The notes under the pieces are model-generated. The model was not told the DNA's origin. It saw only the letters and a program-made list of their open reading frames with translations, and searched no databases. From Deltaproteobacteria bacterium (lineage in GTDB: Bacteria > Myxococcota_A > UBA9042 > PHBI01), in assembly GCA_020632715.1 (NCBI GenBank), contig JACKFA010000007.1, positions 14,462 through 78,461 on the forward strand: a DNA stretch of 64,000 nt, read 5' to 3'. A program made the position numbers and the translations under genes. Numbering within the stretch: position 1 is the stretch's first letter; every line of letters starts with the position of its first letter. Below, piece after piece: positions 3,313-36,301 of the stretch.

Positions 3313-4263
3313 ATGAGTATCGACGAGACCGACCAGATCCTGGACCGCCTGGAGTTGATCGAGGACCGCTGCGAGCTCGCCGACGACGACGAGCGCGAGC
3401 TCGTGCTGGCGAGCCTCCGGTCCGACGACGAGGACGTGCGCGAGGCCGCCAAGGCCGCCGCCAACGCGGCCATCGACGACGCGCTCTGCGAGGCCCTCCT
3501 CGACCTGCTCGCCGACGGCGACGCCGATCCCGAGGCCCGGAGCGGCGCCGCCATCGCGCTCGGGCCGTCGCTCGAGCTCTGCGACGTCGACGGCTTCGAC
3601 GACGAGGACGCGACGCCGCCCATCAGCGAGGAGATGTTCACGCGGACGCGGGCCGCGCTGAAGGCGATCTATCGCGACGCCAAGGCGCCGACGATCGTGC
3701 GCCGGCGCGCCCTCGAGGCGGCCGTGCGCGCCCCCGAGGAGTGGCAGGAGGGCGCCGTGCGTGGCGCGTGGAAGTCGGGCGACCCCGAGTGGCGCGTGAC
3801 CGCCATCTTCTCGATGGGGATCCTCGGCGGCTTCGACGAGACCATCATCGAGGCCATGGACGACGCCGACGTCGACATCGCCTGCGAGGCCGTCTACGCG
3901 TCCATGGAGGCGAGTATCGAGTCGGCCGTGCCGAAGCTCATCGGCTTCGCGCGCAACGCCGACGCCGATCAGTCGCTGCGGCTCGCCGCCATCGAGACGC
4001 TCGGCGGGATCGGCGGGGATCTCGGCATCGCGGCGCTCGAGGAGCTCTCGGCCGACGACGACGACGAGATCGCCGCCGCCGCGGACGACGCGCTGGACAT
4101 GCAGGCCGCCATCACGGAGCTCGTCGGTGTCGGCCTCGACGACGACGACGACTACGAGTTCGAGGACGACGACGCCGACGACGAGGACGACGACGACGAC
4201 TACGAGTTCGAGGACGACGACGCCGATCCCGAGGACGACGAGGAGAAGGAGCCGCCGAACTGA
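3313..4263 (+). CDS. HEAT-repeat protein with a highly acidic C-terminal tail
   Basis: Repeated ..LRLAAIETLGGIGG.. and ..AAIALGP.. HEAT/PBS-lyase-like units. DDDDYEFEDDDAD is duplicated at the C-terminus. GAGGA lies 7 nt upstream of the ATG. Confidence 0.65.
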   Translation: MSIDETDQILDRLELIEDRCELADDDERELVLASLRSDDEDVREAAKAAANAAIDDALCEALLDLLADGDADPEARSGAAIALGPSLELCDVDGFDDEDATPPISEEMFTRTRAALKAIYRDAKAPTIVRRRALEAAVRAPEEWQEGAVRGAWKSGDPEWRVTAIFSMGILGGFDETIIEAMDDADVDIACEAVYASMEASIESAVPKLIGFARNADADQSLRLAAIETLGGIGGDLGIAALEELSADDDDEIAAAADDALDMQAAITELVGVGLDDDDDYEFEDDDADDEDDDDDYEFEDDDADPEDDEEKEPPN

Positions 4264-4539: not shown

Positions 4540-5994
4540 TCACGCAGGCCCCGGCGAGGTCGCTGGCGCGTCGGCCGTCACGGGCTTCCGCGCCGCGCGG
4601 ATGAAGTAGAGCATCGATCCGAGGAAGAACGCCGTGCAGAGGATCGAGGTCAGGTACGAGAACCCGCGGAAGAACGGGAGCCAGCCCACGTCGTGGCTCC
4701 CGAAGTCCTTGTAGAGCACGACGAAGACGTAGCCGAGGTAGCCCACGGCGTCGGTCACGTAGATCATGAAGCCGGCGGTCGCGACGATGCCGACGGCCGC
4801 GATGAGGCGGTCGAAGAGGACGCACCCGAAGGGCACGTAGGCGAGGTAGAGGCCGAGCCCGATGAGGATCATCCAGGTGACCGCGTCGATGGCGCCGGCG
4901 TCGAAGAGGGCCATCGACACGCCGACGAGCGCCGTCCCGGCGGCCATCAGGAGGTGCACGACCCAGAGGGCGCGGCGGTTGTTCCGCACGAGGAAGAGGA
5001 AGCCGAGGGCGATCATCACGCCGAACGCGATGGGGAGCTCGGTCCCGGTCATGAGCGCGGCCATCTCGTCGCCCTTCTTGCCGACGGCGTTCCAGATCTC
5101 CTTCGCGAAGTCGTCGCGCACCCCGCGGTACGCCGTGAGGAAGAAGTAGAGCGCCGTGAGCAGGAGGAGCCCGGGCCAGTACCGCTTCAAGAAGGCGCGC
5201 CGCTTCGCGCCGTCCATCGGCTCGCGCTTCGTGCGGAGCGCCTCGTCCTCGGCGGTCGGCGGCGGGAGCTGCGACAGGAGGAAGACCACGAGCAGGAGCG
5301 GCAGGACGAAGAAGGCGCCGGAGACGAAGGGCATCAGGTCCTCGGAGACGCCGAGGTCCTTGTGGACCCAGGTCCCGACGGACTTCATGATGCCGCTCGC
5401 GATGATGTACGAGGCGGAGAGGCCGGCGCCGAGGATCTCCGAGACCTTGCGCCCCTCGAGGTAGCCGAAGACGAGCCCCCAGATCATGCCGAGCGGGAGC
5501 CCGTTCACGAAGAGCCAGAGGGCGCTCCAGGGGTGCGGCGTCACGGCGAAGAGGCCGAGCGCGCCCTCGGCGACGCCGATGAGCAGCACGATGGCGAGCC
5601 CGCGGCGGGCGCCCGACATCTCGCTCACGATCTTGATGCCGGCGAACTTCGACAGCGTGTAGCCGAGCACCTGCGAGATGACGAAGAGCGACTTCAGCGC
5701 GAGCGGCGGGAGCGCCGCGATCGCGACCGACTCGCCCTCCCAGGAGCCGGCCGTGAACGGCTTCCGGAACCCGTACATGCACAGGTACGTCAGGAACGCC
5801 GCGGCGATCGCGTACGTCGAGAAGGCGGCCGAGTTCGTGCGGCTCAGCCAGCGGGTGATGGGCGACCGGGGGTGCTGCGCGACGACGGACACGGGCGCTC
5901 CAGGCACGGGAGGGAGTCCGGCGGACTGCACCACATCGCCGCCGGGCCCGCCACCGGGGCCGCGTGACAATTGCGTGACGGATCGGGCGCTCAC
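4540..5994 (-). CDS. Polytopic membrane protein (about 12 TM, DUF5690/MFS-like)
   Basis: Long hydrophobic segments and a ..CMYGFRKPFTAG.. motif. The N-terminus is low complexity, so the true start may be the GTG at 5892. Confidence 0.65.
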   Translation of the reverse strand: MSARSVTQLSRGPGGGPGGDVVQSAGLPPVPGAPVSVVAQHPRSPITRWLSRTNSAAFSTYAIAAAFLTYLCMYGFRKPFTAGSWEGESVAIAALPPLALKSLFVISQVLGYTLSKFAGIKIVSEMSGARRGLAIVLLIGVAEGALGLFAVTPHPWSALWLFVNGLPLGMIWGLVFGYLEGRKVSEILGAGLSASYIIASGIMKSVGTWVHKDLGVSEDLMPFVSGAFFVLPLLLVVFLLSQLPPPTAEDEALRTKREPMDGAKRRAFLKRYWPGLLLLTALYFFLTAYRGVRDDFAKEIWNAVGKKGDEMAALMTGTELPIAFGVMIALGFLFLVRNNRRALWVVHLLMAAGTALVGVSMALFDAGAIDAVTWMILIGLGLYLAYVPFGCVLFDRLIAAVGIVATAGFMIYVTDAVGYLGYVFVVLYKDFGSHDVGWLPFFRGFSYLTSILCTAFFLGSMLYFIRAARKPVTADAPATSPGPA

Positions 5995-31284: not shown

Positions 31285-32811
31285 TCAGGCCCCGCGGCCG
31301 CCGAGCACGACGCCGACGGTGCGGAGCAGCACGCGCGCGTCGAAGGTCAGCGAGGCGTGCTTGATGTAGTAGACGTCGTACTCGAGCTTGGCGATGGCGT
31401 CGTCGACGGACGAGCCGTAGGGGAAGCAGACCTGCGCCCAGCCGGTGACGCCCGGCTTCACGAGGTGGCGGAGGTCGTAGTAGGGGATGAGCTGCTCGAG
31501 CTCGGCGGTGAACTCGGGGCGCTCGGGGCGGGGCCCGACGAGGGACATCTGCCCGACGAGGACGTTCCAGAGCTGCGGGAGCTCGTCGAGGCGGGTGCGG
31601 CGCATGAAGCGGCCGAGCGGGGTCACGCGGGGGTCGTTGGCGCTCGCCCAGCGCGCGGCGCCGTCGGACTCGGCGTCGGCGCGCATGGTGCGGAGCTTCA
31701 GGAGGGTGAAGGGGCGCTTCCAGCGGCCGACGCGGACCTGGCGGTAGAGCACGGGGCCGCGGCTCGTGGTCTTGACGAGGACGGCGAGGACGAGGAGCAC
31801 GGGGGCGGCGAGGAGGAGGCCGACGAGGGCGCCGCCGATGTCGATGGCGCGCTTGGCGCTGGCGTACCAGAGGGAGGCGCCGCCGTGGAGCTGCTCGTCG
31901 TGGAGGAACCAGCCGTGGTCGTCGGCGGAGAGGGGGATGCGCTCCTGGACGTCCTCGATGAGCTGGCTCGGGGTGAGGACGGGGACGTTCTTGATCCGGT
32001 AGTGGATGAGGTCGGCGAGGGTCTCGCGGGGGAGGGCGTCGGCGGGGGTGGCGAGGACGACGGCGCGGACGGCCCCCTGCATCTGGGCGTCGAGGGCGGA
32101 CAGCGGGAGGGGGCCGCCGGCGCCGGCGGTGGGGGCCGGGGTGTCGGCGGCGAGGGCGGGGTCGAACCAGACGACGCCGTGTTGTTGGCCGCCGGTGGCG
32201 AGGCGCTCGGCGAGGGCGGCGGCGGCGGGTTGGCTGCCGATGACGAGGACGCGGGCGCGGGCCTCGGCGCGGCGGAGGGCCCAGGCGAGGGCGGCGCGGG
32301 AGAGGACGACCCAGAGGGCGAGGAGGAGGGCGAGGCCGACCATGCCTTGGGAGGCGGGGGGAGAGAGGGCGCGGATGGCGGCCTTCTTGGAGAGGTACTT
32401 GAGGATGATCCAGGCGACGGCGAGGCCGCCGGCGGTGCCGAGGGCGGTGACGCGGGAGACGCGGCCGCGCTCGGCGCGGTAGCCGCCGGCGAGGAAGGTG
32501 CCGAGGAGGGCGCCGGCGACGAGGAGCCAGCTGACGGGGCCGGAGCTCGGGACGTCCCAGGCGAGGAAGGGGAGGCCGATGACGTAGAGCCAGGCGACGA
32601 GGGCGTCGGCGAGCAAGAGGGCGAGGGCGACGCTGCGGCGCGAGCGGGCGCCCCGGTTCGGCACGACGACCTTGCGAGCGGCGCGCTCGAGCTCGATACG
32701 CCGGTCGGTGCGCGCGCGGTCGGAGACGAGGGCGGCGCGGCCGACCGGCGCGTGAGGCGCGGTCCGTGGTGACTCCTGTGACGTGGCGACCAGCCCTCCG
32801 TCGAGCGGCAC
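31285..32811 (-). CDS. WbaP/ExoY-type polyprenyl-phosphate hexose-1-phosphate transferase (initiating phosphoglycosyltransferase)
   Basis: C-terminal bacterial sugar transferase domain (..[15 protein letters not shown].., ..LLKLRTMR.., ..[22 protein letters not shown]..). The start is uncertain. The GTG at 32811 is chosen because the 5' 88 codons of the tracked ORF run through palindromic repeats. Confidence 0.65.
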
Positions 32812-32902
32812 GCGGCCGAGGATGACGGAGCCGAGGCCGCCTGGCAATGAGCGCGACAGGACCGGCCCGTTGTCGAACCCAGAACGTGAACGCCGTTCAC
32901 GC

Positions 32903-32978
32903 GACAGTCCCCGGGGACTGTCATGTAAAGCAACGTAATCGACCCCGACCGGGGGACGGCGACAGTCCCCGGGGACTG
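32903..32978. promoter_or_regulatory. Two copies of the palindrome GACAGTCCCCGGGGACTGT(C), spaced 58 bp apart within a 54-bp direct repeat, upstream of the sugar-transferase gene
   Basis: Sites at 32903..32922 (perfect 20-bp palindrome) and 32961..32978. Each is followed by ATGTAAAGCAA(C/T)GTAA. Confidence 0.45.
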
Positions 32979-33080
32979 CGATGTAAAGCAATGTAAGCGA
33001 AGCGACTCGGGGGCGACCGCCCGGAGCCGGAGAAGACCAGGAAACCAGGCACGCGAGGCCAAACGCAAGGAGCACCCCGG

Positions 33081-33240
33081 GGAGAACCAGCAGCCGCAGG
33101 CGCCGTGGAGATGTGGGAAACCTCGGGCCCGGCTGGCCGCAGGCCGGCCGGGTCCGAGGTTTTCAAAGGCGATGGGCAACTCGGTCGTTCCCGCCGGCGG
33201 CGGGGAACGCCGAGTTGTCCAGGGGGGTGGGCGGCCTCGG
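33081..33240. repeat. Left arm of a roughly 160-bp inverted repeat pair flanking the HNH-endonuclease pseudogene
   Basis: Reverse-complement match to 34795..34940, including the CAACTCG...CGAGTTG and GAAACCTCGG...CCGAGGTTTTC sub-hairpins. Confidence 0.55.
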
Positions 33241-33613
33241 GGCGGGCCGGAGGTCGCGGGGGCGGAGCCCCTGCGACCGCAGGGCTGTCCCCAGGCCGTC
33301 CACGCCCCCGTCATCGCCGGCATCTCCACGGCGCGCACGGGGCTCCGCGGCCACCCCAAAGATTCTAGAATCACGTCACTTTCTGCTTGACGGGTTCTGG
33401 GCGAGCACACCTCGCCAAAGGCCCGGACGACGGCCAGGAATCGCCAGGTTGGCGCCTCCCAGCCCGTCCACCGCGCTGATCAGGGCCAAGCCACCGCGAG
33501 AGGTGGACGAGGTGCCGTTCGTTGAACCTGGAGCGTCCTGGAGGGGCTCGGCCGGCCCTGAAAGCCCCGTGCTATAAGGGAAATCAAGCCGAGACGCCAC
33601 GGAGCACGGACCC

Positions 33614-34700
33614 ATGAACCCCTCGCACGCCCAGTCACGACGCCCCCGACGAAGCCCGGAGCCACGCAGCCCCGAGCGCTCCTCGCCGAGCTCGCGCGCC
33701 ACGCCGCTTCGTCGTTCGAGAAGACGGCCGACGTCCTGCGCCTCCTCGGCGAGGTCGACCGCACCGGCGCCTGGTCCGAGAAGCCCTATGGCTCCCTCTT
33801 CGCGTACTGCCTCGGTGAGCTGAACTGGTCCGAGGGAGAGGCCGCGAAGAAGATCCAGGCCGCGCGGGCGGCGCGGCGCTTCCCGATCCTGCTCCAGCGC
33901 GTCCGCGCAGGGCGGCTGCACCTCGCCGGCGTCGTGCTCCTCGCGGCGAAGCTCAACGACGACAACGCGCGGGAGCTCATCGACGCCGCCTGCGGCAAGT
34001 CGAAGCGCGACGTCGAGGCGCTCCTCGCGGCGCGGTTCCCGCGGCCGGACGTGGCGCCGTCGATCCGCAGGCTGCCTGCGCCATCGCGCCGGGTGGAGGC
34101 GGCGACGCCGTCGCTGCCGATGTCATCGACGCCTTCCGTCGTGCCGGCGGTGCCTGCGCGCCGGGAAGACCTCGGCTCACGCTCTCTCCGTGGGCGGCCG
34201 CCGCGCCGACGTCGCGCCGCTCTCCGCCGAGCGCCACAAGCTGACCGTCACCATCAGCAGCGCCACGCGCGACCGCCTCGCCCGGCTCGCCGCGCTCACG
34301 AGCCACCGGAGCGCCGAGGCGCGCTCCGTCGAGGGCTGCTCGACGCCGCCCTCGAGCTCCTCGAGGCGAAGCTCGTCAAGGAGCGCTTCGGCGTCGGGGC
34401 GAAGCCGCGGAAGGTCGAGGCCCCGAAGAAGTCGGCGCGAGCGTTCTCGAAGGCCGACAGGCGCGCGATCGTGGCGCGCGACGGGCTCCAGTGCTCGCAC
34501 GTCGACGCCGCGACCGGCGTCCGGTGCAGCGAGACGCGCTGGCTGACGCTCGACCACGTGGAGCCCTGGGCTCACGGCGGGGAGAGCGTGGCGGAGAATG
34601 GGCGGGTGCTTTGCAACGCCCACAACCAGGCTGCGGCGCGCCGGGTGCTCGGAGAAGAGCTCGTCCGGAGCCGGGTCGCGGAGCGGCGCGGAGGCGACGT
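33614..34700 (+). pseudogene. DUF222-type HNH endonuclease gene (REP13E12-like) carrying at least two frameshifts
   Basis: Frame 1 has ..LLGEVDRTGAWSEKPYGSLFAYCLGELNWSEGEAAKK.. and the HNH core ..RDGLQCSHVDAATGVRCSETRWLTLDHVEPWAHGGESVAENGRVLCNAHN. The middle segment (..RHKLTVTISSATRDRLARLAALTS..) reads in another frame. Confidence 0.55.
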
Positions 34701-34794
34701 CGGCGGTGAGGGCGGGGTGCTACCGGCGAAGGGGCGCTCCCGCGCCGTGGAGATGCCGGCGATGCCGGGGGCGTGGACGGCCTGTGGACGGCCG

Positions 34795-34940
34795 CTGCGC
34801 GGCCCGCCCACGAGTCCGCCCACACCTTTGGACAACTCGTGACTCCGCGCCCCGCGGGCGCGGAGCCCCGAGTTGCCCACATCGCCTTGGAAAACCTCGG
34901 ACCCGGCCGGCCTGCGGCCAGCCGAACCCGGGTTTCCACA
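34795..34940. repeat. Right arm of the inverted repeat pair, partner of 33081..33240
   Basis: See the left arm. Confidence 0.55.
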
Positions 34941-34986
34941 TCTCCACGGCGCCTGCTGCGGCTGCTTTTCCTCGGGGAGGTCTCCG

Positions 34987-35164
34987 GACAGTCCCCGGGG
35001 ACTGTTGGTCTGGGGTGACCGGGGACTTCGTGTCGGCCGTGGCCCATCCGCACCCGTGGGGAACAGTCCCCGGGGACTGTTGGTCTGGGGTGACCGGGGA
35101 CTTCGTGCCGGCCGTGGCCCATCTCAGTCCGCACGCGAGGGGGGCGACAGTCCCCGGGGACTGT
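34987..35164. promoter_or_regulatory. Three further copies of the ACAGTCCCCGGGGACTGT palindrome; the first two sit in a 66-bp tandem repeat
   Basis: Sites at 34987..35005, 35063..35080 and 35146..35164. The last lies 60 bp upstream of the AI-2E transporter ATG. Confidence 0.45.
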
Positions 35165-35224
35165 TCGCCCGGGGGGGCTTCGTGCCCAATTGTGGGCGGG
35201 GGATTCCTCGGGCATGGTCTCTTC

Positions 35225-36301
35225 ATGGTTGAGCCCGAGAAACCGCGTACGCCGACGCAGACCTACTTCCTCGGCTTCATCGCCTTCGTGGTGCTCGCGG
35301 CCGTCCTGTATTACGCGCGGCCGGTGGTGCTGCCCGTCGTGGTGGCCTTGTTCCTCGCCGTGCTCGTGCGGCCGCTGCATCGGCGCCTGAAGCGCGTGGT
35401 GCCGAGCTCCGTCAGCCTGGCCCTCGTCAGCCTCGCCGTGGGGCTCTTGCTCGTCGCCATCCCGGCCGCCTTCGCCGCCAACATCGACGCCATCCTCGCC
35501 AAGCTCCCCGACTACGCCCCTCGCATCCACGCCATCGTCGAGGACGTCCACGACTTCGCCCTCCGCCTCGGCGTCGACATCGCCCAGCTCGACCTCGACC
35601 CCGTCGCCTCCCTCAAGGACTTCGGCCTCGACGCGCTCACGAGCGGCGTCACCTTCTTCGGCAACGTCGTCCTCATCCTCTTCACCATGCTCTTCATCCT
35701 CTCCGAGGCCGAGATCTTCCGCGACAAGCTCGCCGTCGCCTTCAACCCCTCCAACGAGGCGCGCCTCATCGCCTCCGTCGTCTCCGTCCGCGCCCTCATC
35801 ACGCAGTACGTCGCCACGAAGACCCTCATCGCCTTCCTCTCCGGGCTCGCCGCCGGCGCCGTCACGCTCGCCCTCGGCGTGGACTTCCCCTTCGTCTGGG
35901 GCGTCCTCACCTTCATGCTCTACTACATCCCCAACGTCGGCTCGATGCTGGCCGTGATCCCGCCCTTCCTGCTCGCGATCATCCAGTTCGACGGCCCGAC
36001 CCGCGCGCTCGTGCTCCTCGCCGTCCTCATCGTCGTCTTCAACCTCGTCGGCAACGTGCTCGAGCCGCGCCTCATGGGGCGCACCCTCTCCCTCTCGCCC
36101 CTCATCGTCTTCGTGTCCCTCATCTTCTGGGGCTGGTTCTGGGGCTTCGTCGGCGTCGTCCTCGCCGTCCCCCTCACCGTCGTCACGAAGATCCTCTGCG
36201 AGCACATCGAGGTGCTCCGCCCCGTCGCCGTGCTCATGAGCAACAGCGTCGACGACCACCGCGGCGGACCACCCCCGCCGGCCGCCCCGCCGCGCCGCTG
36301 A
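35225..36301 (+). CDS. AI-2E family (PerM/UPF0118) transporter
   Basis: Eight TM helices with the family's characteristic C-terminal ..FWGWFWGFVGVVLAVPLT.. region. The upstream 209 codons of the tracked ORF are rejected. Confidence 0.75.
   Translation: MVEPEKPRTPTQTYFLGFIAFVVLAAVLYYARPVVLPVVVALFLAVLVRPLHRRLKRVVPSSVSLALVSLAVGLLLVAIPAAFAANIDAILAKLPDYAPRIHAIVEDVHDFALRLGVDIAQLDLDPVASLKDFGLDALTSGVTFFGNVVLILFTMLFILSEAEIFRDKLAVAFNPSNEARLIASVVSVRALITQYVATKTLIAFLSGLAAGAVTLALGVDFPFVWGVLTFMLYYIPNVGSMLAVIPPFLLAIIQFDGPTRALVLLAVLIVVFNLVGNVLEPRLMGRTLSLSPLIVFVSLIFWGWFWGFVGVVLAVPLTVVTKILCEHIEVLRPVAVLMSNSVDDHRGGPPPPAAPPRR

Follow-up and report, generated by a model that had tools for sequence, protein, structure and literature searches.

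A decayed HNH nuclease gene framed by hairpin-rich inverted modules and palindrome arrays, probably a dispersed cassette, in a Myxococcota-like genome

The region between a sugar-transferase gene and an AI-2E transporter gene was analysed in a 64,000-nt stretch (the window; G+C 73.8%) of contig JACKFA010000007.1, from the metagenome-assembled genome (MAG) of a Deltaproteobacteria bacterium. The spacer separating the two genes measures 2.45 kb and contains one coding region, a broken HNH nuclease gene. This gene is preceded by a non-coding leader, enclosed by a pair of inverted-repeat modules and, further out, by two arrays of an 18-bp palindrome. The whole block (32856..35186, no strand assigned; right edge 35165-35186) is missing from the homologous locus L027 by alignment and is likely the full cassette. 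As a description, the following view is well supported: the region is a decayed copy of an HNH cassette that is dispersed and insertion-polymorphic and that contains structured inverted modules and arrays of a palindrome. Both neighbouring genes lie outside the cassette: the sugar-transferase gene at 31285..32769 on the minus strand (Pfam Bac_transf, E 1e-64) and the AI-2E family transporter gene at 35225..36301 on the plus strand (100% identical to P0122, Pfam PF01594). A first-pass annotation of this DNA had placed a selfish element between these two genes, and both flanks were confirmed by Pfam.

The HNH nuclease pseudogene (33614..34842, plus strand) was delimited by three-frame translation, a plot of G+C at third codon positions (GC3) and alignment to L001. 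L001 is a 1.86-kb contig from the European Nucleotide Archive (ENA) that is 91% identical and encodes an intact 477-residue protein, P0001; it served as reference for the indels. The start ATG lies at 33614 and the conserved protein ends at ~34700; the open frame continues into the right module up to a stop codon at 34840-34842. Three-frame translation and the GC3 frame plot agreed on changes of coding frame at ~33640, 34141 and 34321. The first-pass annotation had reported at least two frameshifts and proposed a frame reconstruction against intact proteins. Alignment to L001 placed three frame-breaking indels: a loss of 7 nt directly after 33634, a gain of 1 nt inside GCGCGCC (34156-34162) and a loss of 1 nt at GAGGG/CTG (~34335). 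From the ATG at 33614 the window frame terminates after 69 codons. The annotated 302-residue open reading frame (ORF; 33934-34842) is identical to P0005 (MCB9735888); its product begins mid-protein, and a highly conserved segment is read out of frame.

Consensus polishing errs where paralogues are repeated, as they are here (five copies or more, sharing long identical stretches). The gene might accordingly be intact, with three indels introduced as assembly or polishing artefacts by reads cross-mapped from paralogous copies. Two of the indels are single-base and mutually compensating (+1, -1), and the NCBI annotation carries protein MCB9735888 with no pseudogene label. The 7-nt deletion, however, is atypical for sequencing error, the +1 site GCGCGCC is not a homopolymer, and an annotated product that starts mid-protein with a conserved segment out of frame does not look like an intact gene. 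No in-gene frame switch was found in any other window gene (~55 kb of coding sequence, including genes of 4.8 kb and 3.3 kb); this makes it unlikely that the frameshifts come from assembly errors in general. An intact gene is considered improbable, and the gene is treated below as inactivated.

The reconstructed window protein matched the Pfam HNH family (PF01844) marginally (20.9 bits, cut-off 21.4, E 4e-4), and 43 of 60 relatives matched it at E<=0.01. The HNH motif is encoded at 34490-34630 in the window copy. In alignments of 60 and 65 relatives the residues C, C, H and C were invariant and the catalytic H and N near-invariant. The zinc ligands and catalytic residues are still encoded in the window, in line with the earlier identification of a decayed HNH nuclease gene. 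The accompanying assignment to the DUF222 family was not upheld: no DUF222 match (PF02720) was obtained for the window protein at E<=1, nor for P0001 at E<=0.01, and only 6 of the 60 relatives gave one (best E 6e-7). From these profiles, the relation to DUF222 appears to be remote, at family level only. Scans with Pfam and NCBIfam returned no recognised transposase, only HNH and a weak IscB-HNH similarity (NCBIfam). The family comprises 14,828, 8,123 and 1,495 clusters (50% identity) at E<=1e-3, 1e-10 and 1e-30, respectively; no homologues were found in phage and plasmid collections.

For domain structure, AlphaFold model m1c676dcb1442 of the 57% identical protein P0006 was used (pLDDT 83.9, >90 in the C-terminal domain). 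In this model a disordered linker joins a helical N-terminal domain (1-131) to a beta-hairpin with two helices (197-257), and another linker leads to the HNH domain. The best Foldseek matches were 4h9d (Gme HNH nicking endonuclease; prob 0.98, E 0.066), ScoMcrA, EcoKMcrA and the Cas9 HNH domain; they agree with an HNH fold, though all had E > 0.001. The N-terminal domain was weakly ParB/Noc-like in Foldseek, again with E > 0.001. ParB/Noc DNA-binding domains bind palindromes of 14-16 bp. The middle domain gave a weak PDB-profile match, below significance, to the 80-residue plasmid protein 3no7; its fold (197-257) is reminiscent of a ribbon-helix-helix. The protein is modelled in three parts. 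The helical N-terminal domain is DUF222-like and probably DNA-binding, the small middle domain has a beta-alpha-alpha fold, and the C-terminal part is the HNH nuclease domain with bound zinc.

The leader (33338..33613, plus strand) was recognised as the non-coding promoter region of the nuclease gene from GC3, identity to L001 and conserved boxes. It lacks a coding GC3 signal and shares 99% identity with its counterpart in L001 (L001:60-338), against ~85% for the 3' half of the nuclease gene. The box TTGACGGGTTCTGG lies at 33387-33400, with TTGACG at 33387, and an extended -10-like element, TGCTATAAG, with TATAAG lies at 33570-33578, 35 nt before the ATG. A further palindrome, GATTCTAGAATC (33361-33372), is not conserved in homologues. 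The first-pass annotation had pointed to GATTCTAGAATC, TTGACG and TATAAG in an AT-richer, promoter-like stretch. All three motifs were found in place, and G+C is 0.67 in this stretch vs 0.74 in the window. The box TTGAC..GGTTCTGG is kept in the 56-57% homologues L007 (1165-1458) and L011 (420-749), and TGnTATAAGGGRAATCA is kept ~35-45 nt before the ATG in L007, L011 and L033 (1-206). Given this conservation, the leader boxes probably constitute a promoter with an extended -10. A scan for consensus sigma-70 promoters and terminators returned nothing. The single-sequence fold of the leader was not significant (z -0.86), and the alifold consensus was weak (-30.7 kcal/mol), its 'compensatory' pairs coming from effectively two lineages.

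The left inverted-repeat module (33070..33337, plus strand) was defined by repeat search, folding, covariation and blastn, and the right module (34741..34982, minus strand), its reverse complement, by repeat search, folding, nhmmer and blastn. The arms are ~240-268 nt long and ~81% identical to each other. With the left arm as blastn query, only itself and the right arm were matched in the whole window (E 3e-55); pattern, BLAST and nhmmer searches gave no further module copies in the 64 kb. The inverted repeats had been seen at first pass with extents of 33081-33240 and 34795-34940 (~150 bp). The repeats are real, and these extents are too short. The sub-hairpins noticed within them are likewise present, each arm folding on itself with a predicted free energy (dG) of -216.9 kcal/mol (z -13.9) on the left and -173.8 kcal/mol (z -10.8) on the right, relative to dinucleotide shuffles.

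Each module consists of three palindromic units with heads (T)GTGG(G/A) resembling those of repetitive extragenic palindromic (REP) elements; in the right module the unit heads are TGTGGAAAC, TGTGGGCAAC and TGTGGGCGGAC. A 14-nt closing stem, formed by pairing of GCGCCGTGGAGATG (33100-33113 in the left arm) with CATCTCCACGGCGC (33321-33334), encloses the three long hairpins. An additional ~28-nt hairpin at ~33250-33282 is found in the left arm only. Pairing was compared across three module DNA copies (window left arm, window right arm, L001 right arm). Standard pairs were present in 93% of pair cells, and 13 pairs were altered on both sides yet still paired, vs 5.5 +/- 1.6 in column shuffles and 0-2 with slid partners. 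The double changes agree in suggesting that the module hairpins are maintained, as far as three sequences can indicate. A degenerate palindrome core was observed in the outermost part of each arm (CCCCGGGGAG and CCTCGGGGAG; window 33075-33084 and 34968-34977). A reading of the modules as a DnaA-box cluster or origin was dropped in favour of REP-like heads: no dnaA context was found, and 9-mers with at most one mismatch to TTGTCCACA number only two, both located in the right arm; a loose pattern is mildly enriched (6/500 nt). An Rfam E-value scan of 32700-35300 for known RNA families gave only a chance microRNA match.

The 18-bp perfect palindrome ACAGTCCCCGGGGACTGT occurs in five window copies, at 32904, 32962 (one mismatch), 34988, 35063 and 35147. 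A pattern scan gave 0 occurrences elsewhere in the 64 kb, with a chance expectation of 0. The left array (32901..33013, no strand; repeat family D3 and pattern scan) comprises two units of 55-58 nt, each with the palindrome (32904-32921; 32962-32979, one mismatch) followed by (C/G)ATGTAAAGCAA. The right array (34985..35207, no strand; repeat family D1 and pattern scan) comprises three units of 75-84 nt, in which ACAGTCCCCGGGGACTGT comes first and is followed by the half-site CCGGGGACT. The arrays flank both arms and had been overlooked at first pass. The palindrome also adjoins homologues, at L001:1844, L007:1176 and L011:431.

The limits of the cassette were obtained by comparison with L027, a Logan contig carrying an 87%-identical relative of the AI-2E protein. 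Positions 1-325 of L027 align to window 32535-32855, 350-375 to 35188-35216 and 434-1382 to 35315-36263. In L027 ~25 nt replace window 32856-35186 (~2.3 kb), and the indel therefore covers the palindrome arrays, modules, leader and gene. It reaches ~215 nt past each arm, so that the inverted repeats, which had been taken to bound the element, appear from this alignment to be internal features and not cassette ends. At the left indel edge the sequence reads GCGACAGGACCGG, resembling a half-palindrome (GCGACAGTCCCCGG). Two irregularities were observed next to the junction: the part of the AI-2E gene for the first transmembrane segment, window 35261-35322, is present in L027 in reverse complement (366-427), and the AI-2E start-codon stretch has no counterpart in L027 (L027:318-452 vs window 35217-35322). 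These reflect either a micro-inversion/deletion beside the indel or a Logan assembly artefact. At the more distant AI-2E loci L028 and L030 the upstream neighbours differ, the spacers are short and an HNH gene is lacking.

The irregularities bear on a non-mobile interpretation, in which the block is an old resident and the L027 lineage lost it by deletion, the paralogues stem from ancient duplication, and the modules serve as bidirectional terminators, insulators or protein-binding sites around a regulated cellular nuclease gene. An inverted 62-nt piece of the AI-2E 5' region and a lost start stretch are as expected after an imprecise deletion. The very stable GC-rich hairpins on both sides would block read-through between the divergent neighbours, the divergence of the paralogues (76-87% identity) shows that they are not recent copies, and the proteins form a large, chromosomal family that has no matches in phage or plasmid collections. 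On the other hand, the gene is dead while the modules, palindromes and leader are intact, a better fit to a dispensable selfish element. In addition, L028 and L030 also have short upstream spacers with no HNH gene, distant homologues adjoin DDE transposases, and no U-tract terminators were detected. This interpretation, deletion and regulatory modules together, is regarded as quite unlikely. For the inserted selfish element proposed at first pass, absence of the block from L027 and its multi-copy nature were supported; its mobility is read from one presence/absence comparison and from paralogy, and no mechanism was found.

Five proteins of the database are annotated 'MAG: HNH endonuclease [Deltaproteobacteria bacterium]' and belong to this family: P0003 (MCB9731020) and P0004 (MCB9731908), both intact and on a 1.87-Mb contig; P0121 (MCB9733387) and P0002 (MCB9733675), both intact and on a 1.24-Mb contig; and the window copy P0005 (MCB9735888) on a 0.48-Mb contig. 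The paralogues are 71-87% identical to one another at the protein level. Near-consecutive accessions and read-through tails point to at least five dispersed copies in one assembly, four of them intact. The first-pass annotation had suggested a search for intact paralogues; four with near-consecutive NCBI accessions were found, which supports a multi-copy family. The C-terminal tails of P0001, P0002, P0003 and P0121 are read-through translations of the right module and palindrome (for example GFPHLHGA, RVAHIALENL, TVPGDC and QSPGTV), and the translation in P0004, with its short tail, stops at the beginning of that module. Since the tails translate the right module, the copies share the right-hand architecture; the right module would follow the gene in five copies, four of which would also have the palindrome. 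A database search for spurious ORFs translated from the right module and palindromes returned no match.

Identity among the copies is mosaic. The window is identical to P0001 at 56/56 of the first 56 comparable residues, its segment 262-300 is closest to P0002 (37/38), and P0001 equals P0121 from about residue 130 onward. This pattern suggests gene conversion or exchange among paralogues. The C-terminal tail of P0002 was also observed to back-translate to the reverse complement of the window 32959-32990 unit (palindrome and ATGTAAAGCA). In P0002 this left-flank unit sits downstream of the right module, and the core there may be flipped relative to the outer arrays.

An apparent flip is what would be seen if the core were an invertible segment, in which recombination between the 250-nt arms turns the core and alters transcription of the neighbouring genes. 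Long inverted repeats are known to recombine readily. The P0002 observation, however, depends on a back-translated spurious protein tail, and the ~81% identity of the arms speaks against frequent exchange. No invertase gene lies nearby, and the promoter is inside the segment, so that flipping would not switch the nuclease gene. An invertible segment is highly improbable.

More distant loci were compared with the cassette: L007-L012 (56-57% identity) and L033 (49%; a 2,058-nt contig with 206 nt upstream). Around L007, L011, L032 and L033 no long inverted repeats were found within the sequence available. L007-L012 each have a single 18-bp palindrome ~280-320 nt upstream of the start codon; none is present in the 206 nt upstream in L033. 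Leader motifs are kept at all of these loci. Since distant loci lack the modules and retain the palindrome and leader, the core unit of the clade appears to be palindrome, leader and gene, to which modules and arrays would have been added in the sub-clade of the window.

Hairpins of module type were searched for elsewhere by pattern and profile. The base of hairpin 2 (TGGGCAACTCG N20-40 CGAGTTGTCCA, 11+11 nt) was found in 5 genome and 14 metagenome loci of unrelated taxa, against an estimated chance expectation of one to three matches. The loci (L002-L006, L013-L026) are from Polyangiales, Kutzneria, Planctomycetota, Comamonadaceae and anonymous metagenome contigs; examples are L024:3117-3176, L022:728-945 and L006:3199-3245. 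A full-length match to L022 (E 5e-14) and partial matches to several other loci were obtained with an nhmmer profile of the three module copies. The hairpins are often flanked by CTGTGGGCA-type boxes, and the loci nearly always adjoin transposases of insertion sequence (IS) families (IS200-like, IS3, IS481, IS110, IS1634-like). IS200-like neighbours were present in five loci, namely L024 (Pfam Y1_Tnp), its close homologues L013, L014 and L020, and L019, whose IS200-like protein is 45% identical and has no Pfam match of its own. The hairpin-2 base looks like a cross-phylum REP-like motif family.

REP units have GT(A/G)G heads, and a gene for a REP-associated tyrosine transposase (RAYT) flanked by inverted REPs constitutes a REPtron (PMC2817692). 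The modules might be ordinary REPs, or bacterial interspersed mosaic elements (BIMEs), moved in trans by a RAYT (IS200-like Y1 enzyme) encoded elsewhere. In that case the HNH gene would have been carried along or have landed in a REP doublet, and would not drive any movement itself. The unit heads (T)GTGG(G/A) resemble the REP heads (PMC2817692), a gene between inverted REPs is the RAYT/REPtron layout, and the hairpin-2 base recurs in 19 loci of unrelated taxa, with a full-length module match in L022. Five of the hairpin loci adjoin IS200-like genes; the IS3, IS481, IS110 and IS1634-like neighbours elsewhere belong to families known to target REPs. Within the window, however, tblastn gave no Y1_Tnp gene, and no extra module copy occurs in 64 kb, vs the usual >100 REPs per genome. 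All modules that could be traced, namely those of the window, L001 and the tails of P0002, P0003, P0004 and P0121, adjoin an HNH paralogue, and the indel relative to L027 takes in the gene and outer palindromes, not a module alone. Mobilisation by a RAYT is accordingly considered fairly unlikely.

In the favoured reading, a multi-copy cassette of ~2.3 kb is dispersed in a Myxococcota-like genome, and the region holds one copy of it, now inactivated. The enzyme of intact copies would nick or cut DNA with specificity for site or structure, and would recognise the palindromes or hairpin modules of the cassette itself. Spread and homogenisation would proceed by nuclease-initiated recombination or repair. 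Cassettes would be copied in a homing-like way and would undergo gene conversion with one another, and the proposal does not involve classical transposition. From the window copy the enzyme would no longer be made, and the relic would still be open to action in trans. Taken jointly, cassette and mechanism are held with moderate confidence.

Several points weigh against this reading. Binding or cutting of palindromes or modules by the HNH protein enters as an inference only, and assignment of the copies to the same genome rests on accession numbering. L001/P0001 may be a chimeric short-read contig of two paralogues. The copies diverge by 14-24% at the protein level, with no recent burst of movement visible, and L007 and L011 keep the palindrome and leader without modules, so that the modules are not essential to the gene family. 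The empty site comes from one comparison with a fairly distant relative (79-87% nucleotide identity). No target-site duplication or direct repeat was seen at the indel edges relative to L027, no recognisable target or palindrome-like site was evident at the L027 junction, and a 62-nt inversion adjoins that junction, which makes a deletion in the L027 lineage possible.

Among known systems, the dispersed-cassette reading was compared first with REP13E12 of Mycobacterium tuberculosis, multi-copy loci with DUF222 and HNH that undergo frequent gene conversion (PMC10589994, PMC13061034) and are reported to be hotspots of gene conversion and recombination without a defined function (PMC13061034). 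By analogy, both would be multi-copy chromosomal repeats of ~1.4-2.3 kb with a single HNH gene and a helical N-terminal domain, with some copies broken and signs of exchange between copies. REP13E12 is found in Actinomycetota and this cassette in a Myxococcota-like MAG, and the window protein falls outside the Pfam DUF222 model, which 6/60 relatives match. No phage attachment site, of the phiRv1 type or other, is known for the cassette. REP13E12 is not known to have structured inverted modules of 250 nt or an array of an 18-bp palindrome, and a limited search of the literature brought up no such description.

With REPtrons and BIMEs the cassette shares a single nuclease-type gene flanked by inverted palindromic units with GT(A/G)G-like heads, pairing kept by compensatory changes and units combined into mosaic modules. 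Judged from its sequence, the window cassette appears REPtron-like in layout, with the HNH gene in the place of the RAYT. It differs in that the enclosed gene is HNH (beta-beta-alpha-metal) and not an HUH Y1 transposase, that genome-wide scatter is not visible (0 extra copies in 64 kb), and that the modules (~250 nt, three units and a closing stem) are much longer than a REP. Free-standing HNH homing endonuclease genes resemble the cassette in having HNH as sole gene, presence or absence at a conserved junction and mosaic copies. The cassette, unlike these genes, lies outside phage, intron and intein (no phage matches) and is flanked by long inverted repeats and palindromes, and no recognition site is evident at the empty L027 junction. 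IS elements, miniature inverted-repeat transposable elements (MITEs) and foldback elements likewise have inverted repeats around a short segment, multiple copies and insertion polymorphism. In contrast to them, the cassette has no recognised transposase (DDE, HUH, serine or tyrosine recombinase) and no target-site duplication, and its inverted repeats lie ~215 nt inside the indel edges.

In the literature searched, no published description of REP-like inverted modules and an 18-bp palindrome array around an HNH gene was found. A bolder proposal takes HNH/DUF222-like nucleases together with the REP-like hairpin modules around them as a class of autonomous bacterial element that has so far gone unrecognised, the 'HNH-REPtron'. 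Copying of the cassette would be driven there by an HNH nicking enzyme that recognises the folded palindromic units and the 18-bp palindrome, not by an HUH tyrosine transposase. This proposal is speculative and, as it stands, unlikely. If it is true, a first testable mechanism becomes available for the DUF222/HNH (REP13E12-type) family, which is very large and functionally blank. Multi-copy genes of HNH/DUF222 type are very common (8,123 clusters at E<=1e-10), REP13E12 included. The locus is unusually legible, with empty-site limits, a conserved promoter/leader, a candidate protein-binding palindrome and RAYT-style hairpin modules, and this anatomy makes the questions of repeat spread and nuclease target directly testable. 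As for the copy in the window, it is an ordinary dead relic, and its only local effect is that two divergent genes are now 2.3 kb apart.

The HNH homologues of 56-57% identity are located directly upstream of DDE transposase genes of IS5/IS4 type (L007:3070-4398). In L011 the terminal repeat CTAGAGCRCCGAWCAGGTAA was observed three times (163-194, 3507-3527 and 5276-5296), once upstream of the HNH gene, which may lie inside a composite IS arrangement.

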